Shown here: positions 14,721 to 59,559 of the stretch, piece by piece | Position numbering within the stretch: position 1 is the first letter of the stretch | How the letters are laid out: every line of letters begins with the position of its first letter | Origin: an uncultured Acidobacteriota bacterium | GTDB lineage: Bacteria > Acidobacteriota > Thermoanaerobaculia > Multivoradales > UBA5704 | DNA length: 64,000 bases | NCBI GenBank assembly: GCA_963752235.1 | Contig: CAVVXL010000010.1 | Coordinates: 257,844-321,843, forward strand | Direction: 5' to 3' | Program-made: the position numbers and the translations under genes | The notes under the pieces: model-generated | Told to the model about the DNA's origin: nothing | Databases searched by the model: none | Seen by the model: only the letters and a program-made list of their open reading frames with translations

Positions 14721-17700
14721 CTACTTCCCCGATCCGCCTCCACCCTGCGTCGTCCCCTGCGCGTCCGCCGGCGGTTTGACGTCGGTGCCGCGGTCGCTCT
14801 TGGGAGGCTCGGGGGCCTTTCCTCCCTTGCCGCGCTCGACCGTGTAGAGGAGGTCGACGCCGGTCGCCTGCCCCTGGCCGCCGACCGCCTCCCCCTGCTG
14901 TGCCTGGACGTTCCACTGGCGGCCGAGCAGGTAGCGGATGGTGAAGGTGTTGATCGGCTGGAAGAGGCCGACCCCGAAGTTCACGTAGAGCCGGGGGGAG
15001 AGGTACTTGCCGACGATCAGCGAGGTCTCCTGGAGGCCGCCGGTCGACTCGAGGCGCGCCTCCTGGAGGCCGAAGCGGGAGGCGATCTTCTTCGCCACCA
15101 GGTTCCCCCCCTTGAGGCCGAGCGAGGTGGCGGCATTGGCCAGCAGGTTTCCTTCCGAGGGCGAGGACTGGCCGAGCGGATGACCGAGCAGCAGGTAGGC
15201 GAGGGCGTTGCTCTCGTCCATCGGCGGGTCGGAGTAGAGGGTCGCCTGCGGCGCGCGCAGGGTGCCGGCGATGTTGATCCCCGCCACCGTGCCGTCGGTC
15301 GCCTTGCGGAATGCCTTGAGGTCGAGGCCGGGGTTGTCGATCGAGCCGCCGGCGAAGATCAGGCGGCCGTGATCGAGGGTGAGATCCTGGCCGTACGCCT
15401 TGTAGACGCCGTTCTTGACCTCCAGCTCGCCGATCGCGGCGGTCGCCTTGTTGGGCTCCTCGATCACCAGCAGGCTGCCGGTGAGATCGCCGCTGAAGCC
15501 GGAGGCCTTGATCGTCACCTTGTCGCCGAGGACGGCGCGGACGCGGGCATAGAGCTGGCGCGACGCCTTGACCGGCTGCTTGGCGACCTGGGACGACGGC
15601 GGCAGGATGATCACGTCCTTCGAGACTCCCACCGTCGCCTTCGCCGGCTTGTCCTGGTCGACCGTCAGCTCGGGGATGTCGATGTCGCCGGTGACGTCCA
15701 CCCGGGTGCCGCTGAGCGCGATGGCCAGCCGCGGCGAGGCGAGCACCTTGAGCTCCTTGGTGTTGGCGACCTGGAAGTTCTTGCCGTCGACCGTGATGCG
15801 GCTTGGGGCTCCGTCGAGCGACACACCGCCGCCGATCGTCACTGAGCCATTTCCCGAGCGGGCGGAGCCCTGGATCTGGAGCGGCCCGGTTCCCGAGCTT
15901 TTCGCGGTGAGCTGGAGCTGGCGCACCTGGAGGTTGTAGGCCGGCACGTCGACCTGCGCCCCCTGGAGCTGGGCCGCGCCGGTGATCGCTGGCTTCGCCA
16001 CCGTGCCGCCGAGGGTGAGGTCGGCGTTGAGCGTGCCGCGGGTGTTCTCGACGTCGGGGACGAAGGCTTCGACCAGGCCGAGGTTGGTGAAATTGGCGAT
16101 CACGTGGCCGGCGATCGTCTGGCTCTGGAGCGGCGCGCCGATCTTGTTGTACTGCGGCAAGCGCAGGTCGGCGCGCACGGAGCCGGTGTTGACGAAGGCG
16201 AGGTCGGCATGGCCGGTGAGACCATCGGCGCCGGCCACCACGCGCACCGTCCCCTGCTCGAAGTGGATGTCGCCGTTGCTCCCGCCCTTGACCGGATAGC
16301 GCAGGTCGCCCGGCCCCGGATGGAGCTCCACGTTGGCGGTCACCATGCCGCTCGGCGAGCCGGTGCCGGTGAAGGTGCCGCCGACGGCGCCGGTGACCTT
16401 GAGGTCAGGCGGCAGCAACGGCGTGAGCAGCGAGAACGGCACCTCGGCGAGGTTGCCGCTGGCGTTCCAGGGGCCGTTCTTCAGCCAATGGCCGTCGGCG
16501 CAGAGCCGGGCGGCGCCGGAGGTCCAGCAGAACCCCTTGAGCGCCGCCTGGGTGCCGCCGGCGGAGAGCTGCGCCGGGCCGGAGAGCTTCCAGGCCCCGA
16601 TCTTCGGGGTGCTGAGGTCGAGGCGGCGGATCTCGCCGCTCCACGCCGTGGTGCCGCGCAGCCCGCCGGCCAGGGCGAGGTCGAGGCTGGCGCCCTGCTG
16701 CGTGGCGGTGTCGATCGCCTGCCGCACGGAGAGCGCGAGCTGGTGGGCGCTGCGCGTCCCCTGGCCGGTGAGGGTGACGGTGTCGAACTTCTGCCCGGAG
16801 AGCCCGACGTTGCCGGCCCGCAGGTCGACCGCCAGCGGCCCATTGGCGCCGAGGTCGACGTCGGCCTTCAGGTTGAGGCTGCCGGCCGAGTAGGTCTGGT
16901 AGGCGAGGGCGCTGCCGGTCGCCTGGGCGGTGATCCGCGGCGCCGCCCAGCGCCCGGCGAGGTGCCCCTGGGCGTCGAGGGCGCCGGCGACGCCCGGCAC
17001 CGCCTCGGCCAGGTTGGGCGCCGCGAGCTGGAAGTAGAGGTTGCCGGCGGTCTTGGTGAAGCTCCCCTTGGCGGTGAGCCGGGCGGAGCCCGAGCGCAGG
17101 TCGAGCTGGGGGAGGCCGTACTGCTCGCCTGCGAGCTCCAGCCGCAGGCTGCCGGCGAGCGGGTTGCCCCGCAGCTGGCCGCTGAGCTGGGTGAGGTCGA
17201 CCTCGCCATAGGGGTTGCCGTTGCGCAGGTCGCCGTGGGTGGCGGCGGCGAAGGTGATCCGCCCCGGGTACTGCGCGAGGCGGGCGTCGGCCGCCGGATC
17301 GAGGCCGTCGCCGTTCAGTTGCAGCTTCCAGGCGACCTGCGGCTTCCAGGCGACGCTGCCGGTGGCGGCGAGCTGGCCGCTCAGCACGTCGCCGTGCAGC
17401 GAGCGGATGTCCATCCGCTCCTGGTTGCCGCGGCCGGCGAGCACCCAGTGGCCGGGCGGGATGCCGGGGCCGCCGAGCTGGGCGTCGAGGGCGAGCAGGT
17501 AGTCGGCGAGGGTGCCGGTCACGTGCGCCTTGCCGGCCGGGCTCACCACCACCGGCTTGCCGCCGGTCAGCGGATAGGCGAGCCGGCTCCAGTCGGCGGC
17601 CAGGTCGAGCTTCCCGCCCTTGGCGGTGTTCGCCTTGCCGCGGGCGTTGAGGACGGCCCCCTGGTCGGTCACCAGGTGGGCGGCGTCGATGGTGAAGTCG

Positions 17701-35821: not shown

Positions 35822-37345
35822 CCAGTCCCCACCTCGGCGTCGAACACCGCCGTCTGCACCTTGCCGCCGATCTTGACCTGGACCCACAGGCGGTAGCGTC
35901 CGGGTTGGGGAAACTCGTAGGGAAAGGAGAGCGTCCCCGGCCGGGCGCTCTCCCTCGTCATCTTCATTCCGGCCATCCCGGCCATGCCGTTTCCCCCGGC
36001 CCCACCCTCCTGATTTTCGAACGCCTGCTGGGCCGCCATGCTGACGGTGCCCATCGGGTGGAGGTGGACGAACACCCGGCCGTCGTCGCGGCTGATCACG
36101 GCATGGCTCGGCATTCCCATGTAGGACTCGAGCGCGGCGGGCTCGCCGTCCGCGCCGCGAACCTCGAAGCGCAAGGTGACCTCGCGGCCGGCCCGCAGCG
36201 GCTCCTGGTGCCAGAGCATCGAGCCGCCGTCCTCGAGCAGGGCAAGCTTCGGCCCGGCCGTCGAGGCCCTTCCCAGCGGCTCCGTGATCCGCAGGGAATC
36301 GTCGGGATCGACGTCCGGCGCAACGCCCTGTCCCCCCTCGGAAAAGCTCGCCGGGAGCGTCACCCGGTCCACCAGGGTCTGCGGGAAGCCGCTCTCGTGG
36401 ACGACGTCGGCGTAGACGCGGTAGGAGCCCGCCGGCAGCGGCGGCAAGGAGACCTGGAAACGGTCCGCCCCTTCGGCCACCGGATGGAGATGGGCGAAGG
36501 CGTCGAGGCCGGGCTCGCGCAGCAGGAACAGGTGCATCAGCTTGCCGTGATCGGGGATCAGCGGCGTCCAGTCGTGGCGGCGCGGATCGTCGATCGTCAG
36601 GGTGAGCACGGGCCGGCCACCGGCGAGGCCGACCGCGGCGTGGGTGCGGAACGGCTTGAACAGGCTCGACTGCGCCTCGCCGTCCACCTGGTCCCACCAT
36701 CTCTTGCCACCCCAGAGAGCGGCGGCGAAGAGGAGGGTGGCGAGGACGACGACGACGCGCGCCCGCCGCCGGCGCCGGTCGTCCACCGTCGCGGTGACCG
36801 GCAACGCCCCCTCGCGCACGGCGGCGCCGACGATCGAGACCGCCCCGGCGAACAGGAACAACCCCAGGCCGGCCAGGATCAGTCGGAGGCCGCGGTCCAT
36901 CCCCAGCACGCGGCTCGGCTCGGCGAGGACCGGCACCTGCGCCACCCCGTCTCCCGCCGGCCCCTGGATATGGACCCGCACGCTGTAGGAGGAGGCGACC
37001 ATCAGCCAGAGCTCGCCGCTCCAGGTCCCCGGCGCGCCCGGGACGGGCACGGCGACGTCCGGCGGCGGAGCGCCCCGGAGCCCCGCCTGGAACTGGACCG
37101 GCTGCACGGTGACCTTCAGACGCTGGTCCGCCGGGTACCCCTCGCGCAGCCGCACCGTGATCTCCGCGAGGCCCGGAACCACCACCGGCGGACGGATGAT
37201 GACCCGTACCGGATACGGCCCGGCGTTGCCGTCGTAGAAGACGTTGGGGCTGCCGACGTGCGCCCTGGCGGGGACCGCCGCCGTCGAGCAGGGCCAGGAG
37301 GAGAACGGAGACGGCAGCGCCCCTCCTCATCCTCATCGCTCTCAT
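35818..37345 (-). CDS. exported/membrane-anchored beta-rich protein, apparent frameshift in the signal-peptide region
   Basis: ATG 37345..37343 (MRAMRMRRGAAVSVLLLALL, a good signal peptide) overlaps the upstream stop as ATGA, but after about 25 codons the convincing protein (…ARAHVGSPNVFYDGNAGPYPVRVIIRPPVVVPGLAEITVRL…, track ORF 35818..37185) continues in another frame. The shift lies near the C4/G3 run at about 37266..37285. Two central TM helices and a C-terminal beta domain (HLHPV, GRYRLWVQVKIGG). Confidence 0.4.
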
Positions 37346-38443
37346 CGCTGCACCTTCGCCATCCACTCTCCCCACCAGAGGCCGAGGCGGGTCGAGGCGA
37401 TCGCCCACAGCAGCGCGATGCCGAAGCGCGCGAGCGTCATCGGGTCCTCTTTCCGCATCCAGAACTGGTGATGGAACGCCCCGGGGCGGGAGAAGTAGGC
37501 CCAGAAGCGGTCCCCCGCGAAGAACCAGTTGTCGGCCGCGGGAGAGAGCTGAAAGTCGGCGAAGAACCAGTGGACCGTGAAGAAGACGACCAGGAACGCC
37601 GTTCCGATCGCCGCCGCGTCCCGCCAGCCGGCGCGCTTCTCTTCTCCCCGGGACCGCGCGCTGGAGCAGGAGGTCGATCGCCAGCGCCGGAATCACCAGG
37701 AGCAGCGGGAAGAGCGGCGGCGCCATGTGGTCGACCGGCAGGTTGATCGGTCCGAGCCTGGGATGGGCCGGGAAGAGCGGCAGGATCCAGACCATGAGGA
37801 GCTTGAGCAGCATGTAAAAGGCCGCCGTGATCGTGGCCGCCCAGCGCAGACGCGACGAGCGCGCCACGGCGACCAGCAGGAGCGGGAGGACGGCCGCCAT
37901 CAGCTCATAGAAGAGGCCGCCGTGCCGGCGGTTCGGCTCGCTGTACTCGAGCAGGAGGCCGGTGATCATCGTCACCACGATCCCGGCCGCGTACAGATGA
38001 GCGAGCCCGAGCTTGCGCACCTCCCCGGCGGGCGCGCGGTTCTGGGCGGACAGCGCGAGCAGCATGGCGCCGAGCTCGATGGTGATCATGCCGGCGCCGA
38101 GCAGACTGTGCGGCGGCGAGAGCACCTTGACGTCGAGGCCATAGGCGGCGTGCCACCAGTTGTCGAACGGCGCCGAGGTGAGCATGGCGATGGCGCCCCA
38201 GATCGCCACCCAGGCGCCGAGCGGCGCGCGGAACCCCCAGAAACGGACCGCCCGCCCGCGTTCCGCCGCGCTGCCGCCGAAGGTGGTGCCGAGCGCCAGG
38301 GCGCCGCACGAGATCCCCGCCAGCACCCCGCCGAGGTAGATCGCCATGTGGGCCGGCGTCCAGAAGGTGTCGCGGCCGATCGTCATGTGCCAGGAGATGT
38401 CCCAGAGCAGGCCGACGATGATGCTGGTCGACCCGGCGAGCAT
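37342..38443 (-). CDS. polytopic membrane protein (8 or more TM), apparent frameshift near 37640..37660
   Basis: N-terminal 265 aa in the frame of track ORF 33461..38443 (MLAGSTSIIVGLLWDISWH...LLQRAVPG). C-terminal 100 aa (...EEKRAGWRDAAAIGTAFLVVFFTVHWFF...GEWMAKVQR*) continue in the adjacent frame after the CCCGGGG run. Stop at 37342. Confidence 0.4.
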
Positions 38444-38564
38444 GGCGGTCAGGTACCAGGGGAGGGCGGCGCTCGCCGCGCGCGGCTCGAGGACGGGCGG
38501 CTACGGAGCGACGGATTCCATGACGGTTCTCCTCGCGACGGAATGGCTGCTCAGAGGTTATACG

Positions 38565-39741
38565 ATGCGCGGCATGATTCGTTCCTTCCGCGCTCCCACC
38601 CGCCTGGTGATGGCCCCCGGCGCCCTCGCGCACCTGCCCGAGATCGTCGCCGGCTACTTTTCCGATCGCCTTTCCGGCCAGCCCCCCGGGCGGGTCGTCC
38701 TGGTGACCGATCCAGGGGTCGAGGAGACCGGCATTCCCGAGCACGTCTGGCAGGCGCTGGCGGAGATCGACGTCGAGGCGATCACCTTCGACGACGTCGA
38801 GCCGAACCCGCGCGCCGCGACCGTCGACCGGCTGGCGGCCTGGGCGAAGGAGGAGGGGGCGGCGCTGGTGATCGGACTCGGCGGCGGCAGCGTCCTCGAC
38901 GCCGCCAAGGCCGCCGCGATGGTGATGGCGAACGGCGACGCCCCGGTCGCCGGCTACGAAGGGCGGGACCGTTACACTGAGAAGCCCCTCCCCTTCATCG
39001 CCATCCCCACGACCTGCGGCACCGGCTCCGAGGTGACCTGGGTCTCCGTGCTCACCGTCGAGGAGCGCCACGCCAAGATCAGCGTCAAGGGGGAGACGAT
39101 GTTCCCCGACTGGGCGATCGTCGACGCCGACCTCCTGCGCACCCTGCCCGGCCGGCTGGTCGCCTGGACCGGAGCCGACGCCCTGACCCATGCCGTCGAA
39201 GCGGTCACCTGCAAGGTCGCCAACCCGGTCTCGGACGCCCTCGCCACCACCGCCGTCTCCCTCCTCCTGCGCTACCTGCGCCGGGCCGCCGCCCACATCG
39301 GCGAGGACGCCGAGGCGCGCGAGGCCGTGATGCGGGCCTCGACTCTCGCCGGCCTCGCCTTCGGCAACGCCGACGTGGGGGCCGTCCACTGCCTCTCGGA
39401 GACGCTCGGCGGCCGCTTCGACCTGCCGCACGGGCTCGCCAACGCCGTCCTCCTGGCGCCGGTCGTGCGCTACGAACCTCCCCGCCTGCGCCGACCGGCT
39501 GGCCACCCTGGAAACCGCGCTGCCGCCGGGGAGCGGTCACAGCGGCAAGGGCGCCGAAGGGGTGCTGCAGGCGATCGAAGAGCTGGTGCGGGACCTCGGC
39601 ATCCCCCGTTTCCGCGACCTCGGCATCCCCGCCGAGGCCCACCCGTGGATCGCGGAACGGGCGGCGCAGAACGGCTCGAACCCGTCCAACCCCCGTGAGA
39701 TGGGGCCGGCGGAGTACCTGGAGCTGCTGGGCTCGCTCTAG
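38565..39741 (+). CDS. iron-containing alcohol dehydrogenase, apparent frameshift near 39485..39500
   Basis: Start at MRGMIRSF, in frame within track ORF 38346..39698. GGGSVLDAAK and Fe-ligand His motifs. After ...LLAPVVRYEP the real C-terminus (CADRLATLETALPPGSGHSGKGAEGVLQAIEELVRDLGIPRFRDLGIP...LGSL*) runs in the +2 frame to the TAG at 39739..39741. The shift lies at a CCCC run. Confidence 0.7.
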
Positions 39742-41999: not shown

Positions 42000-43350
42000 T
42001 CAGGGGCAGGTCGAGAACGCCGACGAATCCTGGACCGGCCGGAAGGCCGTCCCCTGCGGGTTGTCGTAAGTCTTGACCGCGCCGGTCTGGGTGTCGGTCA
42101 CCGTGAGGTGGACCCGCACGTTGGTGAGGCCGCCGGCGTAGACCCAGTAGCGCTGGTTGAAGCCGCAGGCGTTCAGCACCTTGAGCACCACCTCGACGTT
42201 GCTGGCGGCGAAGAACCAGAAGTAGCCGGTGTCGGGGGTCAGGGCCACGGCGTGGCCGGCGCCGCTGACGCCGTTCGCCGTGTACTGCGCCTCCACCTGG
42301 AAACGGCCGCCGTTGAGGCAGAGGCGGGTGTCGCCGGGAAGGCAGCCGGTGGGAGTCGAGGAGGGCTTCCAGCCGAGTTGGACCACCTCGAAGTCGCTCG
42401 CCTTCAGGCTGGCGAAGGCGGGGTTCAGCACGTCGTTGTTCCAGCGCGTGTCGTAGGCGCCGGTAATGTAGAGGTTCGAGCCGTTGTCGGCCACGATCAG
42501 CCCGTAGGTCTTCATCGCCTGGAAGATCTTCTGCACCTCGGGCGGATACCCCGCGATGTTCTTGCTCGCCTTGAGCCGCAGGCGCCCGCCCATCGGCAAC
42601 GCCCCGTTCGAGCCGCCGGCGTCGTGCGAGGCGGGAAAGACGTAGCCGTTGCTCTCCTCGACGGTGAAGCGGAAGGCGTGGCGGATCGGCGCCGAGCCGA
42701 AGGTCTCGTCGTAGCGCACCAGCCCCGGCAGGATGGCGAGGCCGGCCGCGTCGGCGCTGGTCCAGCCGTCGGGGCGGCGCAGGTTCGAGTCGAGCGGGAA
42801 GACGGCGCCGGACCCCGCCTCCCAGCGGCTGCGGGCGGCGTTCCAGTGCGTGTGGTAGAGCTCGAAGAGGAGGTGGTGATCGCGGTCGACGATCAGCATG
42901 TGGCGGTCGCCGCCGGGGTCGGCGTTGCCGGGATAGCCCCCCTCGATCCACTTCCCCTGCGTCTTCGCCTCCTCCGGAATCGGATAGCCGGCCGGCCGCC
43001 CCGGAGCCCCCGCATCGCTCTCGCTCCCGAACTCGACGAAGGTCACCGGCACCAGGGCTTGAGTGCCCGGCACCGAGAGATAGACCATGCCGTAGATCTC
43101 GGGCGCGGGATCGGAGTCGCCGCCGAAGTCGGGGTGCAGACCCACGTCCGCGCCGAGGAAGTTGATGTAGGCCGCGCTGTGCGGATCGACCGGCGCCGCG
43201 CTGACGTCCGCGTTCCACCAGTTGTCGGCCGGGAACAGCGGCAGCGGCGCCGGGAGAGGGACCGCCCGGCTGGGCCGCGGCGACGGTGGCCGAGAGGAAG
43301 GTCAGCGCCAGGGCGAGGGCGAGCCGCGCCGGAAGGATGTTCCTGTTCAT
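42000..43350 (-). CDS. hypothetical secreted protein, apparent frameshift just after the signal peptide (about 43239..43273)
   Basis: Signal peptide MNRNILPARLALALALTFLSATVAAAQ in one frame (track ORF 41929..43350). Mature protein (PLPLFPADNWWNADVSAAPVDPHSAAYINFLGADVGLHPDFGG...AFSTCP*) in the adjacent frame (track ORF 42000..43145). Junction at CCGGGCGG / CCCTCTCCC runs. Confidence 0.45.
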
Positions 43351-43415: not shown

Positions 43416-44192
43416 ATGGAGGTCCGCGACTTCGCCCTCACCGTCGTCTCGACTGAGGATCTCGGAGTCAAGCTCGCGTCGGCTCCAGCCGAGCTGACCG
43501 ACGAGGAGCCCGGCCCGCCGTTGCGAATCGCGCAGCCGGGCCGGCCGCCGGGTTTGGAGTTCCAGCGGCGGATCGAGGTGCCGGCGATCGAGGGGATGCC
43601 CGATCCGGCGCAGCGTCCCCGCATCCTGCACGCCCTCGCCAACCACGAGCTGCAGGCCGCCGAGCTGTTCGCCTGGGCGCTCCTGGCGTTTCCCGACGCG
43701 CCGCGGGAGTTCCGCCGCGGGCTGCTCGAGATCCTGGCGGACGAGCAGCGCCATACCCGGATGTACATCGCCCGGCTGGAGGACGCCGGAGCGCGCTTCG
43801 GCGACTTCCCCGTCAGCGGCTACTTCTGGAGCAAGATCGAGGCGATCACCTCGCCCCTCGCCTTCGTCTGCGCCATGTCGCTCACCTTCGAGAACGCCAA
43901 CCTCGACCACACGATCGATTACGAGGAGGCGGCGCGGCGGGCGGGCGACGCCAAGACCGCCGCCGTGATCGAACGCGTCCATCGCGACGAGATCGAGCAC
44001 GTCCGTTTCGGCTGGACCTGGCTTCAGCGCTTCAAGCGCGAGGACGAGCCCGCCTGGGAGACGTTCGAGGCCAACCTCGCCTGGCCGCTCCGCCCCGCGA
44101 AAGGAAAGGGCCGGACCTTTCATCGCGCGGGGCGCGAAGCCGCCGGGCTCGACGCCGAGTTCATCCGGCAGCTCGAAGAGAGCCTCGATTGA
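43416..44192 (+). CDS. DUF455 family protein (ferritin-like fold)
   Basis: 258 aa. ILHALANHELQAAELFAWALLAF...LADEQRHTRMYIARLE matches my recollection of PF04305. Confidence 0.6.
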   Translation: MEVRDFALTVVSTEDLGVKLASAPAELTDEEPGPPLRIAQPGRPPGLEFQRRIEVPAIEGMPDPAQRPRILHALANHELQAAELFAWALLAFPDAPREFRRGLLEILADEQRHTRMYIARLEDAGARFGDFPVSGYFWSKIEAITSPLAFVCAMSLTFENANLDHTIDYEEAARRAGDAKTAAVIERVHRDEIEHVRFGWTWLQRFKREDEPAWETFEANLAWPLRPAKGKGRTFHRAGREAAGLDAEFIRQLEESLD

Positions 44193-44205
44193 TATCGAGG
44201 GTGCC

Positions 44206-45204
44206 GTGACCCGACGCATCCTCGCCAACCTCCTCGCCGAGGAGGAGCTCGCCCGGACCCATCGCCGGGCCCCGCCGTCCCGCTCCGTCCTTGCGACCGC
44301 CTCTCGAATGGCCCTGCTCCTGCGCGTCTTCGCCCGCGAAGGGGACCATCTGTGGCTCCCGGGGACGGTCGACCCCGCGCTCCTCCCCGCGATCCCGGGC
44401 GGGCCTCAGCCGATCCTCGAATCGGGCCCTCTGCGCGGTCTTCCTCCAGCCGACGAAGTTCTCGCCTGGTGCGAGACTCCCACGGCGATGGCGCATCGAG
44501 GGGGGGCCCGCGCGGGACCCGGAAGATCTCCTGGGACGCGCCGCTGCACGATCTCCTCTGGCAGCTGCCGACCCCCTCCCCCGAGGTCGTCGCCAAGGTT
44601 CACCACCGCGGCTTTCATCTCCAGGTCGCGGCGGAGATCGGCTGCGCCTTACCGGGCGCTCGGAGGGTGGAGTCCCTCGCGGACCTCGACCGCGCGCTCC
44701 ACGGCGGTCCGCCAGAGCTGGGTCGTCAAGGCACCCTTCTCCGCGTCGGGGCGATCCCGCTACATCGAGCGGAACGGCCCGGGGCTGATCGATCCCAAAG
44801 CCCGCCGGACCGTCGAGCGGCTGTTCGCCTACCACGGCGCCCTGTACTTCGAACCGTGGATGGAGCGCACGGAGGATTTCGGCGTCTCCGCTCTCCTCGC
44901 GGATGGCGCAGATGCCGAGCTGCGGATCGTGGGGATTCACCGGCAAAGGGTGGACCGCAAGGGGCAGTTCGAGGGGATCGATCTCGACGCCGGGCTCTCG
45001 GCGCAGGATCGGGACCGTCTGCTGCAGACCGTCGAGGCGGTGGCCGCGGCCTTGCGCCGGGAGGGCTATGCCGGTCCCTTCGGGATCGACGCCTGGCGCT
45101 ATCGCCGGGCGGACGGCGCGCTCATCCTGAATCCCCTGGGAGAGATCAACGCCCGCATGACCTTCGGGCTGGTGGCGTGGACGGCGGCGGGACGGGCGGG
45201 CTGA
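44206..45204 (+). CDS. ATP-grasp-like ligase, two compensating apparent frameshifts (about 44500 and about 44705)
   Basis: N-terminal 100 aa and C-terminal 165 aa in frame 1 (…WVVKAPFSASGRSRY…GEINARMTFG…). The central part reads sensibly only in frame 3 (KISWDAPLHDLLWQLPTPSPEVVAKVHHRGFHLQVAAEIGCALPGARRVESLADLDRALHGG), whereas frame 1 there is Arg/Ser-rich nonsense. The first shift coincides with a run of 7 G at 44500..44506. Confidence 0.4.
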   Translation: MTRRILANLLAEEELARTHRRAPPSRSVLATASRMALLLRVFAREGDHLWLPGTVDPALLPAIPGGPQPILESGPLRGLPPADEVLAWCETPTAMAHRGGARAGPGRSPGTRRCTISSGSCRPPPPRSSPRFTTAAFISRSRRRSAAPYRALGGWSPSRTSTARSTAVRQSWVVKAPFSASGRSRYIERNGPGLIDPKARRTVERLFAYHGALYFEPWMERTEDFGVSALLADGADAELRIVGIHRQRVDRKGQFEGIDLDAGLSAQDRDRLLQTVEAVAAALRREGYAGPFGIDAWRYRRADGALILNPLGEINARMTFGLVAWTAAGRAG

Positions 45205-45207
45205 TTC

Positions 45208-47244
45208 CTACCCGACGAGCCCGAGGAGCTCCTGCCCGTATTTCTGCACGATCGTCGGTCCGATGCCGGGGACGTTAAGCAGCTCGGCCTCGTTGCGCGG
45301 ACGGCTGGCGGCGAGCGCGGTGACGGCGCGGTCGGTGAGGATGCGGAACGCCGGCACGCGGCGGCGCTGGGCCTCGGCGCGGCGCCAGACCTTGAGCGCC
45401 TCGACGACCTGCGGCGAGACGAGGTCGGGAGCGGTCGCCGGCGTCAGGCCCGCAGCGATCTTCTTCGCTGGATACGCCCGGGGCTCGCCCTTGTCGGGCC
45501 TGGCCGCGCGCTCGCGCTTCTTGCGCGTCTTCGGCATCTCCTCGGCGATCTCGACCCCCGACGCCGCGGCGGCAGGGTCGCAGCGGTACCCTTCCGGGGT
45601 GAGCTGGGCGCGCTGGAAGCGGATCGTCCGGCCGTCCTTCTCGAACTCGTCCTCGGTGATGCGCAGCAGGGCGGCGCGGCTCAGGCCCGCCAGCAGGCGC
45701 TCGAACGACTTGCGGTCGGAGAGCTCCTCGGGGACCACCTCGCGGTAGAGCTGCCCGGTCGACTGGCCGTCGCGGCCGCGCAGGGCGGTGAGCGTGCGGT
45801 CGACGAGCCCGCGCTCCAGGGCGTTGAGCGGCCGCATCCGGCGCACCCCGCAGTCGGCCGGCGCGCAGATGTCACAGATCCCGCAGGGCTCGCCCGAGTC
45901 CTCCTGGTCGCCGAAGTGGCGCACCAGGTGGAGCATGCGGCAGCCGTGCGCCTCGGCGTAGCGGCTGATCAGCTCGAGCTGCTCGAGCTTGTGGTCGCGC
46001 TGGGCGAGATAGGGCTTCTGCCAGCCGGCGGAGCCGGCCGCGACGTTGCCGTCCGGGTCCACCAGGGCGCCGCCGTGGATCCAGAGCTTCTCGAGCGCCT
46101 TCTCGAACAGCTCGTCGTCCATCTTCAGGCGCTTCCTGATCTGGCCGTCCACCTGCGGCTCGGCGCCGAGGGCGCGGTAGATGCGGTCGAGCTCCGTCAC
46201 CTCCGGGTAGTCCCGGCCGTGGAACCACTCGTGGTTGCGGCGGTCGGCGAAAGAGTAGAGGAGGATCGCCCGCGAGAGCTGGCCGTCGCGGCCGGCGCGG
46301 CCGATCTCCTGGTAGTACCCCTCGGTGCTGCCGGGAAGGCCGGTGTGGATCACGGTGCGCACGTTCGCCTTGTCCACCCCCATGCCGAAGGCGATGGTGG
46401 CCACGATCACCTCGAGGCGGCCGGAGAGGAACGCCGTCTGCACGCGGTCGCGGTCGCCGGTGGTCATCCCGGCGTGGTAAGCCGCGGCGGGGAAGCTCTC
46501 CTGGAGGGCCTCGCCCAGGAAGTCCGCCTCCTTGCGGGTGGGGGCGTAGACGATCGCCGGCCGGCGGGCCGGGTCGGCGAGGATCTTGCGCACGGCGTCG
46601 CGGCGCTCCGAGGGGCGCATCTCCACCACCTCGACGGCGATGTTGGTGCGCCGGAAGCCGTGGATGAAGCGCCCCTCCCCGGCGAGGCCGAGCTGGCCGG
46701 CGATGTCGTCCTGCACCCGCGGCGTGGCGGTGGCGGTCAAGGCGATCACCGGCGCCGGGCGGAGCAGCGGCAGGCGCTGGCCGAGCAATCGGTAGTCGGG
46801 GCGGAAGTCGTGCCCCCACTGCGAGATGCAGTGCGCCTCGTCGACCGCGATGAGCACCGGCTTGCGCCTGGCGAGCATCTCGGGAAAGCCGGGGACGGCC
46901 AGCCGCTCGGGGGCGATGAAGAGGTAGTCGAGCCGGCCGGCGAGGTAGTCGATGCAGACCTGCCGCGACGCCGAGCGGTCCCGCCCGGAATGGATGCGCT
47001 CGGCGCGCAGCCCCAGCTCGCGGAGCTTGCCGACCTGGTCCTCCATCAGCGCGATGAGCGGCGAGACGACCAGCGTCGTCCCTCCCCGCGCGAGCCCCGG
47101 GAGCTGATAGCAGAGCGACTTGCCGGCCCCCGTCGGCATCACCAGCAGGACGTCCTTCGCCTCCACCACCGCCCGGCAGACCGCCTCCTGATAGGGACGG
47201 AAGGAGGGGAGGCGGAAGGCGGTGTGGAGAAGGTGGTCGATGTC
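45208..47244 (-). CDS. recQ: ATP-dependent DNA helicase RecQ (helicase core, RQC, HRDC); start codon unresolved
   Basis: C-terminal 678 aa of track ORF 45208..49284: Motif 0 region [12 protein letters not shown], Walker [18 protein letters not shown] box [15 protein letters not shown], Zn-binding C..C...C..C, and a C-terminal HRDC domain ([30 protein letters not shown]). No in-frame start for more than 60 codons upstream. A candidate ATG at 47318 lies in the topB frame and requires a shift at the GGGGG run 47246..47250. Confidence 0.85.
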
Positions 47245-49532
47245 TCCCCCGGCCGGTCGGGAAGCGGGCGGCGGGGCGGTGAACGGGAGAGTGGGAGCGA
47301 AGCCCGGACGCGCGCCATTCGGCCCCTTGGCGGCAGGCGCGGTAGTCGTGGCAGCCGCGCCATGCGAGCCATTCCCGCCTGGGAGGAGGCTGCGCTGCCC
47401 GTTGCCGTCCGGTCTCCCCTCCCTCGTCGGCCGGGGAAAGACGCCGGGGGCGCGAGGGGCGCCGGGGAACGGTTTTCGTCGGTGCTCCGCAGCGTCTGCG
47501 CGGCGGCGGCGGGCGTCAGGACCGGACCGCCTCCCACCACCTCGCGCACATACTCCTCGATCCCTTGCATGAAAGCGGCGAGGTCCCCCTCCCCGCGCTG
47601 GATGCGCTGGAGCTGGGCCTCCCAGCGGCCGGTCATCTCCGGGCTCTTGACCTGCGGGTGGACGATCTCGATCAGCCGGATCCCCTTGTCGGTCGCCTCC
47701 AGGGCCTTGCCGTCGCGGCCGCCGCGGACGATGTACTCGCGGCGCAGCAGGGTCTCGATGATCTCCGCGCGGGTCGCCGGCGTGCCGAGCCCCGAGTCCT
47801 TCATCGCCGCCGAGAGCTCGCGGTCGTCGAGCGTCTTGCCGGCGGTTTCCATGGCGGTCAGCAGGGTGGCCTCGGTCAGCCGCTTGGGGGGGCGGGTAGC
47901 CTTGGCCACGGCGCGGACGTCCTCGACCTCCTGCGGCTGCCCGGCGGCGAGCCCCGGCGGCAGGTCCTGGTTCTCCTCGACGGACAGGGGCTCGGCGGGC
48001 TCCGGCTCCTTCTCTCCTTCCCCCTCCTTCGCCTCCTTGGGAGCCGCCTTCTTCTTGCCACCCTTCTTCTCGATGTCGAGGATCTTCCACCCCACCTGGT
48101 CGATCAGGGTGCCGGTGCTGTGGTAGCGATCGAGCAGCGGCTCGCCGACGCCGGAAGGTGGCGGGGTGGAGACGGCGGTGATCACCGTCGTCACCGACCA
48201 GACGTGGTCGTCGTGCCAGGCCGAGAGGAGGCGCCGGCAGACCAGGTCGTAGATCTTCTTCTCGTCGTCGGCGAGCGCGGCGACGTCGAGGGACGTCGTG
48301 GTGGGGATGATCGCGTGGTGGTCGGTGACCTTGGAGTCGTCGACGAAGCGGCGGCTCAAGGGCCGCTCGCCGGTGCCGGGAGCGAGCTTCTCCGCGTAGG
48401 GGCGGCGGACGGCGCTCACGATCTCGCCCAGGGTGGCGGCGACGTCGGTCGAGAGATGGCGGCTGTCGGTGCGCGGGTAGCTGATCAGCTTCCTCTGCTC
48501 GTAGAGGGCTTGGGCGACCCCCAGCGTCTTCTTGGCGCTGAAGCCGTAGAGGCGGTTGGCGTGCCGCTGGAGCTCGGTCAGGTCGTAGAGCAGCGGCGGC
48601 GGCATCCGCTTGGTCTCGGCGCGGATCGACTCGACGGCGGCCTGCCCTGCGCGGGCGCGGCGGACGATCTCCATCGCCGCCGCCAGATCCTCGCCGTCCT
48701 TGCCGCCGGGCGGCGTCTTGATCCGCTTCGCCTCGGCGTTGGGAAACAGCCCGCGGAACCAGGTGCCCTTGTAGGAGGGCTTCGCGCCCTCGGAGCTCTC
48801 GGCGCTCTCGCTCGGCACCGCCCCCTGGGGCACGAAGGTGGCCACCACCTCCAGGTAGTCCTCGGGCACGAAGGCGCGGACCGCCAGCTCGCGCTCGACC
48901 ACCATGGCGAGCGTCGGGGTCTGCACCCGCCCGACGGAGAGCTGCTCCTCGTTGAAGTCCAGCGAGTAGGCCCGCGAGAGGTTCATGCCGACCAGCCAGT
49001 CGGCGCGGCTGCGTCCGCGGGCGGCGTCGGCCAGCGGATCGAGGTCGTGGCCGTCGCGCAGCCGGCTGAACCCTTGGCGGATGGCGTCGGCGGTGAGCGA
49101 GGAGATCCAGAGGCGCTGAAACGGCTTCCGGCAGCCGGCGGCCTCGTAGATGTAGCGGAAGATCAGCTCCCCCTCCCGGCCGGCGTCGGTGGCGCAGATC
49201 ACGCGCTCGACCTCCGGGGCGGTGATCACCCGGCGGACGGCCTCGAACTGTGCCTTGGTCTCCTCGGAGACGACCAGCGGCCACTCAATGGGGAGGATCG
49301 GCAGGTGGTCGCGCCGCCAGCGTTTCCACTCGGGGTTGATCTCGTGCGGTTGCGCCAGGGCGACCAGATGACCGATCGCCCAGGTGACCACGTAGCCGTT
49401 GCCATGGAGGAAACCGTCTCCCCGCTGATCCGCGCCGAGCACGCGGGCGATGTCCCGGGCGACGGCGGGCTTTTCGGCGAGGACGGCAATGGTGGTCGGG
49501 TGCATCTCCGGGGAAGGGCGCGGTGTCGACAA
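47139..49532 (-). CDS. topB: DNA topoisomerase III-like type IA topoisomerase; 3-prime end uncertain
   Basis: Toprim N-terminus [20 protein letters not shown]...[12 protein letters not shown], catalytic Tyr region ([12 protein letters not shown]). The core is about 665 aa, then an Arg-rich tail that overlaps the recQ frame by about 180 nt. Confidence 0.8.
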
Positions 49533-49672
49533 GCCGCCGCAATCTTACGTCAAATCGCCACCTGGCGTGGCCGGGAGAGGGAAGCCTTGAGGGAGGAACA
49601 TTCCCCGCCGCCGGCTCTCTAGGAGGGGACCCGTAAGCCGGCGGCGGGGGAAGGTACAGCTTCAGCGCCTTT

Positions 49673-49687
49673 GAACATCATTTGAAC
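49673..49687 (-). promoter_or_regulatory. GAAC-N7-GAAC direct repeat (GTTC-N7-GTTC on the coding strand), a candidate LexA/SOS box upstream of topB-recQ
   Basis: tttGAACatcatttGAACatca lies 140 nt upstream of the topB start, in the DinB_2-topB intergenic region. Confidence 0.3.
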
Positions 49688-49780
49688 ATCAGAGGACTTC
49701 AATTTAATTTTCAACGCTGTCTCAAGAGTGTGACCGCCGCCGCGAATCGGGACACTCCGAGATGCGATCCGGCGTGATTT

Positions 49781-50362
49781 TTATTTTTCGCCCGCGGACC
49801 CGGTGGCGGAACGCGCGAACATCGCCGCATTGAGCTCCCTCGTCCCGCCGCGCGGGACGGAGAGCGTCCGCCAGGTCGCGGAGGCGAAGTGCTTGGCGAG
49901 CAGGACGATCTGACCGGCGTGGTAGGCCTGATGGGTCAGCTGGCGGCCGATCGCCCGGACCACGCTGTGAGGCTCGGCGCGGATGTGGACGGTCCGCGTC
50001 AGGTCGTCACGGCTGAGCGCGCCGAGCGAGTCGAAGAGGAGCCCCCACCCCACTTCCCAGCGGGCCAGGAGGTCAGCCCGGGTCGTCCCCTCGCCGGCCA
50101 CGAACTCCGCATCGCGGTCGCGGTCGGGCTTCTCGCCGTCGGTGGTCAGGAAGTCCGTCCAACGGGAGATCAGGTTTCCAGCCATGTGCTGGATCAACAG
50201 GGCCAGGCTGTTCGTTTCCGGGTCGAGGACGACGAAGAGATCCTCGTCCCGCACCTGGGCCAGGGCGCGGTCGGCGAGGCTCTTGATCTTGCGGAACTGG
50301 TCCGCGACATCCTCCAGATAGAGGGCGGCGAGAGAGCGGTCCATGCTGTCCATGCTGTCCAT
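49781..50362 (-). CDS. DinB_2/DUF1572-like (DinB/YfiT superfamily) protein
   Basis: 193 aa from MDSMDSMD. The four-helix His-rich pattern (HMAGNL...H...HQAYHAGQIV) resembles the DinB_2 family. Confidence 0.55.
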   Translation of the reverse strand: MDSMDSMDRSLAALYLEDVADQFRKIKSLADRALAQVRDEDLFVVLDPETNSLALLIQHMAGNLISRWTDFLTTDGEKPDRDRDAEFVAGEGTTRADLLARWEVGWGLLFDSLGALSRDDLTRTVHIRAEPHSVVRAIGRQLTHQAYHAGQIVLLAKHFASATWRTLSVPRGGTRELNAAMFARSATGSAGEK

Positions 50363-53135: not shown

Positions 53136-57522
<4,387 letters not shown>

Positions 57523-57591
57523 GGCGAAAGAAGAGCGGAAGATCCGCTCAGGATAACAGGAATTCAGCCGGGGGGATTCCCCTGTTGAAGC

Positions 57592-57807
57592 CTAGGAGAG
57601 CGGCTCGTTCTTGCTCTCTTCGGCGTCGACGGCGCGCAGCAGCTCGGCCGGGCTCTCCCGGACTTCCAGCGGCTCGCCGCTGCCGGCGAGGATCACCACG
57701 CTCCCCTCCTGCGGCTTGCCCGGCACGCGGGCGAGGATCGCCGCGATCTGGGAGGTGTTGAGGTTGGCGTTGCGGTCGTCGAGGGTCGTCGCGGAGATCC
57801 ATGCCAT
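57592..57807 (-). CDS. small hypothetical protein (71 aa) immediately upstream of lhr
   Basis: MAWISATTLDDRNANLNTSQIAAILARVPGKPQEGSVVILAGSGEPLEVRESPAELLRAVDAEESKNEPLS. GC3 about 96%. No obvious SD. It lies in what would otherwise be the deaD leader on the opposite strand. Confidence 0.4.
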   Translation of the reverse strand: MAWISATTLDDRNANLNTSQIAAILARVPGKPQEGSVVILAGSGEPLEVRESPAELLRAVDAEESKNEPLS

Positions 57808-57861
57808 GGCATGGAGGGTAGCACGCCGCCAAACAGGATAGAGTCGAGACCGGAGGACATC

Positions 57862-59559
57862 ATGGCGACAGACGAAGAAGAGGCAGGGGCAACTTTCGCG
57901 AGCCTGGGGCTCTCGGAGCCCCTCCTGAAGGCGATCACCGAAATCGGCTACGAGGCGCCGACACCGATCCAGGAGAAGACGATCCCGCCGATGCTCGCCG
58001 GGCGCGACCTGATCGGCCAGGCGCAGACGGGAACCGGCAAGACGGCGGCGTTCGCCATCCCGATCCTGGAGAAGATCGACCTCACGGTCCCCGGGGTGCA
58101 GGCGCTGGTGCTGGCGCCGACCCGGGAGCTGGCGATCCAGGTGGCGGAGGCGGTCCACGTCTACTCCAAGTACCTGGGCCGCGTGGCCGTGCTGCCGGTC
58201 TACGGCGGCCAGCCGATCCAGCTCCAGCTCAAGCGGCTCGACCGCGGCGTCCACGTGGTCGTCGGCACGCCGGGGCGGATCATGGACCACCTGCGGCGCG
58301 GGTCGATGCGCCTCGACGCCGTCCGCGTCGTGGTGCTCGACGAGGCGGACGAGATGCTCCGCATGGGCTTCATCGAGGACGTCGAGTGGATCCTTTCGCA
58401 GGCGCCGGAGGGGCGGCAGACGGCGCTCTTCTCGGCCACTCTGCCGCGCGAGGTGCGCCGGGTCGCCGAGCGCCACCTGCGCAACCCGATCTCGATCGAG
58501 ATCGAGCACAAGACGATGACGGTGCCCGCCATCGACCAGCGCTACCTCAACGTCCTGCCGCAGCAGAAGCTCGACGCGCTCACCAGCATCCTGGAGACCG
58601 AGCCGACCGAGGCGGTGCTGATCTTCACCCGCACCAAGAACGGCGCCGCCGAGCTCACCGAGCGCCTGGAAGGGCGCGGCTACGCCGCCGAGGCGATGCA
58701 CGGCGACATGAACCAGGCGCAGCGCGAGAGCGTGATCCGCCGCCTGAAGTCCGGCCAGCTGGAGATCGTGGTGGCGACCGACGTCGCCGCCCGCGGCCTG
58801 GACGTCGAACGGATCAGCCACGTCATCAACTTCGACGTCCCCAACGACGTCGAGGCCTACGTCCACCGCATCGGCCGCACCGGCCGGGCGGGACGCTCCG
58901 GAGTCGCCGTGCTCTTCGTCTCCCCCCGCGAGCGGCGGATGATGACGGAGATCGAGCGCTACACCGGGGCGCGCATCACGCCGATGAAGATGCCCTCCCA
59001 AGCCGACGTGGCGGCGCGGCGGACCGCTCTGTTCAAGGAGAGCATCCGGCAGTCGGTCGCCGAGGGGGACCTCGACCTCTATCTCACCCTGGTCGAGGAG
59101 CTGGTGGTGGAGGGGCTGGACCTCGCCGAGATCGCCGCGGGCGCCGCCCGGCTGGCCCGCGGCGACAAGCCGCTCGCGGTCGCGCTCGAGCCCGAGCCCA
59201 GGGGGGTCCACCGGGCCGAGGACGGCATGGTGCGGCTGTTCATCGACGCCGGCAGCCGGGCCGGCGTGCGGCCGGGGGACATCGTGGGGGCGATCGCCAA
59301 CGAGGCCGGGGTGCCGGGCAAGGCGATCGGCTCGATCGACATCTACGACAATTTCACCTTCGTGGAGCTGCCGGCGCAGTTCAGCGACCAGGTGCTCGAG
59401 CGGATGGCCAACGCCACCATCCGCGGCCGGCCGGTGGGCATCCGGGTGGCGACCACCGAGGGGGACGGGGAGAGGCCGCGCGACCGCGGGCGGCGCCCCG
59501 GGGGCGAGAGGCCGCGCGGCGACCGGCCGCGCCCGCCCTATCAGGACCGGCGGCGCTGA
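57862..59559 (+). CDS. deaD: DEAD-box ATP-dependent RNA helicase (DeaD/CsdA-like with DbpA-type C-terminal RNA-binding domain)
   Basis: Start MATDEEE (GGAGGA upstream). Q motif, Walker A AQTGTGKT, DEAD box VLDEADEM, SAT, HRIGRTGRAG, and a C-terminal DbpA-like domain plus an RGG-like basic tail. Confidence 0.9.
   Translation: MATDEEEAGATFASLGLSEPLLKAITEIGYEAPTPIQEKTIPPMLAGRDLIGQAQTGTGKTAAFAIPILEKIDLTVPGVQALVLAPTRELAIQVAEAVHVYSKYLGRVAVLPVYGGQPIQLQLKRLDRGVHVVVGTPGRIMDHLRRGSMRLDAVRVVVLDEADEMLRMGFIEDVEWILSQAPEGRQTALFSATLPREVRRVAERHLRNPISIEIEHKTMTVPAIDQRYLNVLPQQKLDALTSILETEPTEAVLIFTRTKNGAAELTERLEGRGYAAEAMHGDMNQAQRESVIRRLKSGQLEIVVATDVAARGLDVERISHVINFDVPNDVEAYVHRIGRTGRAGRSGVAVLFVSPRERRMMTEIERYTGARITPMKMPSQADVAARRTALFKESIRQSVAEGDLDLYLTLVEELVVEGLDLAEIAAGAARLARGDKPLAVALEPEPRGVHRAEDGMVRLFIDAGSRAGVRPGDIVGAIANEAGVPGKAIGSIDIYDNFTFVELPAQFSDQVLERMANATIRGRPVGIRVATTEGDGERPRDRGRRPGGERPRGDRPRPPYQDRRR

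Follow-up and report, generated by a model that had tools for sequence, protein, structure and literature searches.

A single-chain topoisomerase III–RecQ protein of soil bacteria, probably split by an assembly error in one Acidobacteriota contig

When a type IA topoisomerase and a RecQ helicase are encoded without a spacer and in overlapping reading frames, are they the products of two genes or of one? The question is raised by a locus in a stretch of 64,000 nucleotides (nt) from contig CAVVXL010000010.1 of an uncultured Acidobacteriota bacterium (Thermoanaerobaculia; assembly GCA_963752235.1, positions 257,844 to 321,843). This whole stretch is called the window below, and all positions refer to it unless stated otherwise. 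A first reading, made from the letters and their translations and called here the sequence-only reading, had described the locus as a topoisomerase III (Topo III) gene, topB, followed by recQ, and had suggested either an overlapping, translationally coupled pair or a fused protein. Our analysis points to the fusion: in all probability, a single minus-strand gene (49505..45208) encodes a Topo III–linker–RecQ protein of ~1,432 amino acids (aa) in one chain, and the apparent two open reading frames (ORFs) result from a deficit of one base.

Two Reading Frames at One Locus

As assembled, the Topo III ORF runs on the minus strand for 797 aa from TTG 49532 to a stop at 47141–47139 and contains the Pfam domains Toprim and Topoisom_bac. 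ATG 49505 is more likely to be the start than TTG 49532, as judged from its agreement with the start of the related proteins P0001 and P0002, in which the 27-nt TTG extension is missing. The RecQ frame, also on the minus strand and in −1 relative to the Topo frame, is open over 49284..45208 and contains the domains DEAD, Helicase_C, RecQ_Zn_bind and HRDC. Recognizable RecQ coding begins at ~47250 (GGDIDHLL), on the same strand as the Topo III ORF and with no spacer. The sequence-only reading had given this arrangement correctly, apart from the orientation: both parts lie on the minus strand.

The Topo frame does extend into RecQ homology, as had been claimed, although the overlap with family-conserved RecQ sequence measures ~110 nt (stop at 47139–47141 against ~47250) and not ~180 nt. 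Counted from the zone in which the frames switch (47435–47458; see below), the out-of-frame tail of the Topo ORF amounts to ~300 nt. The reported absence of a RecQ start codon for more than 60 codons holds over a greater distance, as the RecQ frame lacks any ATG, GTG or TTG over a stretch that begins at or above 47650 and ends only with GTG 47169, a gap of more than 160 codons, and this GTG falls downstream of the conserved RecQ motif 0. A run of five Gs that had been placed exactly at the junction is present (minus-strand GGGGG at 47250–47246, within the codons for G-G-D), but the frame change is not there; it maps ~200 nt upstream, and the interval proposed for resequencing the junction, 47200..47350, lies outside the switch zone. 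A scan for promoters and terminators over 44900–49900 gave nothing informative.

The features of the locus are as follows; GC3 stands for the G+C content of third codon positions and AF2 for an AlphaFold2 model of the RecQ half, whose residue numbers are used where indicated.

45208..49505, minus strand: the whole gene, very probably a Topo III–RecQ fusion, from ATG 49505 to the stop at 45208–45210; two frames as assembled, a 1,432-aa ORF with one base restored
49098..49484, minus strand: Toprim domain (Pfam PF01751), with the Glu in LAEKP (49481–49467) and the acidic motif ATDAGREGE (49193–49167)
47565..49037, minus strand: Topoisom_bac core (Pfam PF01131, 7e-105), with the catalytic Tyr in SYPRTDSRH (48482–48456)
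47251..47525, minus strand: low-complexity linker rich in P, A, G, S and R, from the last Topo helix (YVREVVGGG) to the RecQ N terminus
47435..47458, minus strand: zone in which coding passes into the RecQ frame (−1 relative to the Topo frame), the most likely site of the missing base, placed by GC3, relatives' DNA, tblastn and an insertion scan
47139..47434, minus strand: out-of-frame tail of the Topo ORF, ~100 Arg/Pro-rich codons ending in TGA 47141–47139; GC3 and the relatives match the RecQ frame here
46282..47250, minus strand: RecQ helicase core, beginning with GGDIDHLL, with motif 0 (FRPYQ, 47202–47188), Walker A (PTGAGKS, 47136–47116), DEAH (46842–46831) and GRAGRDG (46302–46282)
46033..46200, minus strand: extra winged-helix-like insert (AF2 residues 355–410; three helices and two strands)
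45865..45942, minus strand: RecQ zinc-binding Cys4 cluster (Pfam PF16124)
45601..45822, minus strand: predicted RQC-type winged helix (AF2 residues 481–554; Foldseek), the Pfam RQC model itself giving no match
45214..45411, minus strand: HRDC domain (Pfam PF00570, 5e-19; AF2 helices 617–683), preceded by a disordered Lys/Arg-rich segment (576–614)

Both Halves Are One Protein in Relatives

We searched the conceptual fusion protein against 5.8 billion proteins and derived the following figures from the 120 best matches. All 120 are single proteins, 1,113–1,570 aa in length and 59–92% identical to the query, with ~115 of them full length and most measuring 1,330–1,490 aa. In each of them, the topoisomerase core is joined to DEAD, Helicase_C and RecQ_Zn_bind domains; nearly all also have Toprim and HRDC, and most originate from Thermoanaerobaculia and other Acidobacteriota. 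The family architecture is thus Toprim–Topoisom_bac–linker–DEAD–Helicase_C–RecQ_Zn(–HRDC) in one ORF; the window copy, 92% identical to intact fusion members, is broken by a net 1-nt deficit. Members of the family carry automatic database names such as "DNA topoisomerase 3."

A genome survey including one genome per species recovered ~55 loci with an uninterrupted fused ORF. These were found in Thermoanaerobaculia, Bryobacterales/Solibacteraceae, Terriglobia, Acidobacteriaceae, Myxococcota (Polyangia, Myxococcaceae, Archangium) and Oligoflexus, and a fused ORF was also present in single metagenome-assembled genomes (MAGs) labelled Geobacter and Competibacteraceae. The fusion is likewise carried by complete genomes, such as OY970373.1 and OY970385.1, and Bryobacterales have shorter members of ~1,300 aa. 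The next-best matches of the survey were unfused Topo III proteins of Clostridia, at 40–45% identity. Among representatives clustered at 50% identity, which were searched exhaustively with HMMER, at least 35 have a length of at least 1,150 aa, and the six most divergent representatives checked (39–42% identity) showed the same domain order, some of them without HRDC. On mobile elements, none of 72,556 plasmid or 50,697 phage records contained a fused copy.

The sequence-only reading had proposed a comparison with related genomes for conserved adjacency or fusion, and what is conserved is the fusion, with both halves in one ORF. Its suggestion of a fused Topo III–RecQ in the domain order opposite to reverse gyrase is supported at each of the levels studied: the 120 best database matches, the ~55 genome loci and the six divergent representatives. 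Judged by its genes, the fusion is real and widespread in soil bacteria. Full-text literature searches found no description of a natural bacterial Topo III–RecQ fusion; subscription-only papers were outside their scope, and a prior description is possible.

These data bear on the coupled pair that had been suggested first. Two separate, overlapping genes, topB and recQ, joined by translational coupling would explain the shared strand, the lack of a spacer and the overlapping frames, and adjacent but separate genes do exist: in Listeria monocytogenes (NZ_LR134400.1; L084 3980–7929), a RecQ gene and a Firmicutes-type Topo III gene are found side by side on one strand. The Listeria genes are like the fusion in this proximity and unlike it in being separated by a 23-nt gap, in their order (recQ then topB) and in sequence (~39–44% identity), and they may represent an independent case of genomic linkage; among Clostridia, RecQ was found within 6 kb of Topo III at none of the 19 loci examined. 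At our locus, a coupled recQ would have to be translated despite more than 160 codons without a start above GTG 47169, which itself comes after the invariant motif 0. Moreover, the close and distant relatives all have one ORF, the addition of one base yields one ORF in the window as well, and four other genes in the window show similar breaks (see below). We therefore consider a pair of coupled genes hardly credible.

The representative library also contained unfused RecQ proteins that share the subtype of the fused half (P0144, 693 aa; P0148; P0164; and others). They are 680–740 aa long, 45–59% identical and have an HRDC domain, and they may come from genuine free-standing genes or from fusion genes that were split or frameshifted.

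Composition of the Two Halves and the Linker

The Topo half scores 40.2 with PF01751 (cut-off 23.1) and 351.7 with PF01131 (cut-off 35.1), and it passes the thresholds of the NCBIfam models NF005829 (DNA topoisomerase 3; 642 vs. 597) and TIGR01056 (topB; 547.8 vs. 515.75). Its best match in the Protein Data Bank (PDB) is E. coli Topo III with an E value of ~3e-80 (11yy in the top row; 1D6M, 3.6e-80). The catalytic Tyr (SYPRTDSRH), the Toprim Glu (LAEKP) and the Asp and Glu residues of ATDAGREGE are invariant in 115 fused proteins. The second Asp of the Toprim DxD motif is replaced by Gly (DxG), as in 19 of 19 free-standing Topo III proteins of Clostridia; because DxG is common to the latter, we regard it as a trait of the subfamily and not as decay. 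The segment 47849–47793 aligns without gaps to the region of the E. coli Topo III decatenation loop, which we take to be residues 502–519; the similarity is modest, and the segment is conserved across the fused family. By its family models and motifs, the Topo half is a type IA topoisomerase of the Topo III (TopB) subfamily and of the Firmicutes type (NF005829).

The RecQ half scores 375.4 with TIGR00614 (recQ_fam; cut-off 219.8), and its best solved match is E. coli RecQ (1OYW, 2.4e-86). Motif 0, Walker A, DEAH, the arginine finger and the four zinc-binding Cys residues are invariant across the 115 sequences. The score for the RecQ equivalog TIGR01389 is 460.9, below the cut-off of 640.2, and the Pfam RQC model has no match in this half. 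The AF2 model (predicted local distance difference test [pLDDT] 82, predicted template modeling score [pTM] 0.72) places, in order, two RecA lobes, a winged-helix-like insert, the zinc module, an RQC-type winged helix, a disordered basic segment and HRDC. In Foldseek, the model matched BLM (4CDG) best, over ~710 columns, and the catalytic core of E. coli RecQ (1OYW) over 596. The C terminus of the half is longer than that of E. coli RecQ. Sequence and model together predict that the RecQ half is a complete RecQ-family helicase with core, zinc module, winged helix and HRDC.

The winged-helix-like insert that separates helicase lobe 2 from the zinc module measures ~55–70 aa. It is a conserved feature of the fused family that E. 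coli RecQ lacks, and query residues 388–461 are skipped when HMMER aligns the half to 1OYW.

Measured from YVREVV to FRPYQEA inclusive, the linker spans 55–259 aa in 115 relatives and ~90 aa in the window copy, which has an 84-nt insertion relative to L001 (47381–47298). No linker motif is conserved family-wide among the 115 relatives. The linker is disordered, flexible and variable. Its length is polymorphic among relatives with 93–94% nt identity (84-nt and 21-nt in-frame differences), and the short motifs NGNG, PTLPF and PPLPVREGGRGRERGPGGEG are common to the subclade of the window and missing from other clades.

Origin of the Frame Break

Where, then, do the frames change, and why? GC3 is 0.9–1.0 in the Topo frame down to ~47480 and again 0.9–1.0 in the RecQ frame from ~47200, and the two frames cross at ~47470–47440. 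Over the tail of the Topo ORF (47139..47434), GC3 of the Topo frame falls to ~0.72–0.76 and that of the RecQ frame climbs to 0.84–1.0; by this composition, the tail is an artefact of the frame break and not coding in the Topo frame. When the DNA is aligned to the two closest relatives, L001 and L002 (93–94% nt identity, same gene neighborhood), the indels measure 27, 60, 12, 9, 84 and 12 nt, all multiples of three, with the sole exception of a net 1-nt gap in the window copy, inside the linker. Searches with the relatives' proteins using tblastn place the frame change inside 47487–47409. Finally, one base inserted anywhere in 47381–47520 produces an uninterrupted 1,432-aa ORF, and the fit of the resulting linker to P0001 and P0002 is best when the base is added at 47435–47458. 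On the plus strand, this switch zone has a run of five Gs (47446–47450) and one of four (47456–47459) and touches a second run of four (47433–47436).

A frame change could also be made by the ribosome. The heptamer T_TTC_CCC (minus strand, 47439–47433), which overlaps the switch zone and lies in the Topo frame, has the canonical X_XXY_YYZ form of a −1 slippery site, and a −1 slip exactly there leads into the RecQ frame. Programmed −1 frameshifting would then provide two products in a regulated ratio, Topo III alone (stop 47139) and Topo III–RecQ. However, the heptamer is missing from the closest relatives, which are themselves in frame, and RNA folding of the 93 nt downstream of it is no better than that of shuffled sequences (z = +1.1). 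The zero-frame tail has the low GC3 typical of noncoding frames, and the neighboring genes are similarly broken without such a motif. A site in which YYZ is CCC is also not known to shift efficiently in bacteria. Programmed frameshifting thus appears most improbable.

The neighboring breaks became evident when 24 kb of the window was compared with the relative L083 (94% identical). Four further conserved genes are split by single-base indels:

57522..53139, minus strand: Lhr helicase, 1-nt indel relative to L083 at ~55725
43350..42003, minus strand: 449-aa secreted protein, 1-nt indel relative to L083 at ~43257, with the signal peptide in another frame
38574..39738, plus strand: iron-containing alcohol dehydrogenase (Fe-ADH), 1-nt indel relative to L083 at ~39472
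38521..37345, minus strand: 391-aa protein, 1-nt indel relative to L083 at ~37657

Most of these four breaks are 1-nt insertions outside homopolymers, and the encoded proteins are otherwise 90–97% identical to those of L083. With the fusion included, 5 of the 14 genes shared with L083 are frame-broken, a proportion that is not credible for a living genome and fits an assembly prone to indels; we infer that long-read chemistry is to blame. The fusion gene is likewise broken in other MAGs, at scattered and unrelated sites: in L040, L048, L053 (four breaks) and L056, the last of which comes from an Oxford Nanopore Technologies (ONT) bin.

Selection provides a further measure. When the window is compared with its relatives, the ratio of nonsynonymous to synonymous substitution rates (dN/dS) comes to 0.19–0.20 in the Topo half and 0.07–0.09 in the RecQ half, and a control comparison of two intact relatives gives 0.21 and 0.08, respectively. 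As the values equal those of the intact control, selection has not been relaxed downstream of the break.

The alternative is a genuine, recent deletion of one base. It would leave a Topo III with ~100 junk residues at the C terminus and a RecQ that is either untranslated or made from GTG 47169 without motif 0, in other words a young pseudogene or split gene. Such a deletion agrees with the sequence as given, in which the break is present, and our searches yielded no second, independent sequence of this strain that would argue otherwise. It is difficult to reconcile with the fact that, over 24 kb, four more conserved genes have 1-nt breaks although the proteins are otherwise 90–97% identical to those of the relative, with a dN/dS in the RecQ half as low as in intact relatives, and with the breaks scattered elsewhere in the gene among other long-read MAG copies; we consider it unlikely. 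Because breaks of this kind recur in several conserved genes nearby, we prefer an assembly error, and the net one-base deficit in the linker is most likely of this kind.

Some observations speak against the reading as one gene split by an assembly error. The linker is too divergent for the indel to be placed at one exact nucleotide, and the zone to which it can be assigned includes a formally canonical slippery heptamer. A copy of the linker from the same strain was not found in metagenome contigs by exact-pattern scans, whose anchors were first tight around the switch zone and then wobble-tolerant in the codons of YVREVVGG and SFRPYQEA. Similarly, the gene-position collection contained no protein identical to the 788-aa Topo ORF or to its intact 258-aa DUF455 neighbor; the closest copy in the one-genome-per-species scan is 77% identical. 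The consequence of error-prone assembly reaches beyond this locus: the window carries approximately one frame-breaking indel per 5 kb, and other split or overlapping genes in it are therefore suspect.

Comparison with Known Systems

Of the known systems, E. coli RecQ and Topo III (TopB) provide the closest solved structures for both halves of the fusion and share their catalytic motifs. The fusion also has the segment that aligns, with modest similarity, to the decatenation loop, and its RecQ has the zinc module, the winged helix and HRDC. The E. coli proteins are encoded by unlinked genes and do not interact physically, and a review (PMC7140829) describes their in vivo partnership as disputed, whereas the fusion is one polypeptide with a disordered linker. 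The Topo half differs from the E. coli enzyme in being of the Firmicutes type (NF005829), in having DxG for DxD and in carrying the linker and RecQ in place of a C-terminal tail of its own. The helicase half differs from E. coli RecQ in scoring below the TIGR01389 cut-off and in its extra winged-helix-like insert.

The eukaryotic complexes BLM–TOP3A–RMI1/2 and Sgs1–Top3–Rmi1 similarly pair a RecQ-family helicase with Topo III. According to PMC3905885, BLM and Sgs1 tether TOP3A and Top3 through a disordered N-terminal region. The topoisomerase is thus attached N-terminal to the helicase core via a disordered segment in both cases, noncovalently in Sgs1/BLM and covalently in the fusion. In contrast to the eukaryotic dissolvasome, the fusion is bacterial and has no RMI1-like OB-fold partner encoded nearby.

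Reverse gyrase resembles the fusion as a natural single chain that unites a superfamily 2 (SF2) ATPase with a type IA topoisomerase. Its modules share a fixed, latch-mediated interface, whereas the linker of the fusion is flexible and varies from 55 to 259 aa. The helicase-like part of reverse gyrase is N-terminal and the topoisomerase C-terminal, opposite to the fusion; its ATPase is not a full RecQ, whereas the helicase of the fusion is predicted to be complete; and its hosts are hyperthermophiles, whereas the fusion is found in mesophilic soil and sediment bacteria. The union of the two functions in one chain (PMC7245102) could be taken to mean that the fusion is a mesophilic analogue of reverse gyrase and introduces positive supercoils. 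The domain order is the reverse, the TIGR01054 score is 116 bits against a cut-off of 471.7, the helicase half with its zinc module, winged helix and HRDC has the makeup of a full RecQ, and a disordered linker, variable in length, connects the modules. We conclude from these differences that the fusion is not a reverse gyrase, and a role as its analogue is very unlikely.

Proposed Function

E. coli RecQ stimulates catenation and decatenation by Topo III in vitro (Harmon et al. 1999, as summarized in PMC7140829 and PMC7245102). By analogy, we propose that the fusion would work like beads on a string, with an active Topo III tethered by a flexible arm to the N terminus of an active and complete RecQ. 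The RecQ part would translocate 3'→5' with ATP and unwind duplex DNA, and the unwound single-stranded DNA would be passed to the tethered Topo III for strand passage. The protein would in this way make the RecQ/Topo III partnership (BLM–TOP3A, Sgs1–Top3) covalent, catenating and decatenating DNA, resolving late replication intermediates, hemicatenanes and converging forks, and dissolving double Holliday junctions.

The label "dissolvasome" would be borrowed from the E. coli and eukaryotic partnerships. That the single-chain Topo III–RecQ of Acidobacteriota and Myxococcota is an undescribed natural bacterial dissolvasome, in which the tethering of Sgs1/BLM has been made covalent, is in our judgement evenly balanced between true and false. 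On the negative side, coupled RecQ-to-Topo III action within the fusion family would be an extension by analogy from other systems; the partnership is disputed in vivo in E. coli itself (PMC7140829); and the AF2 model spans the RecQ half, so that contact between the modules of the full-length protein lies outside it.

The new element is the single-chain architecture of Topo III and RecQ; the RecQ/Topo III partnership is known, and the overlap seen in the window is probably an artefact. A 2020 review (PMC7140829) considers evidence for a bacterial Topo III–RecQ toposome to be lacking, and a 2020 paper on reverse gyrase (PMC7245102) states that hyperthermophiles "uniquely" fused both functions. 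The fusion bears on the disputed question of whether bacterial Topo III and RecQ act jointly in vivo. If the proposal is true, the fusion is Rosetta-stone evidence that RecQ and Topo III form a working unit in bacteria, and a single polypeptide in which the coupling of helicase and topoisomerase could be dissected. Its conservation, wide distribution and strong purifying selection in both halves are direct evidence, of an evolutionary kind, that the two functions are coupled in at least two bacterial phyla. The fusion is also a simple subject for single-molecule and structural studies of their cooperation without RMI-type subunits.

Genomic Neighborhood

No RMI1-like, SSB or other partner gene beside the fusion is conserved beyond close Thermoanaerobaculia relatives. 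A DinB_2/DUF1572 gene is located directly upstream of the fusion (50353..49805, minus strand), and two other SF2 helicase genes are found near it, Lhr (~1,464 aa) and a DeaD/DbpA-type RNA helicase (57862..59499, plus strand). This Lhr/DeaD/DinB_2 neighborhood (53139..59499 region) is conserved in close Thermoanaerobaculia relatives only.

On the other side, L083 has a PIN-domain toxin gene with a small upstream partner (15216–15879 of that locus) that is missing at 44192–44206 of the window, and a toxin–antitoxin-like cassette has apparently been gained or lost between the two. A hypothetical gene of 332 aa, convergent with the fusion (44206..45204, plus strand), is 73% identical to its L083 counterpart, compared with 90–97% for the neighboring genes. 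Relative to L083, it shows a +1 indel at ~44711 and a +2 indel at ~44500, and it may contain a compensated frame-shifted stretch.

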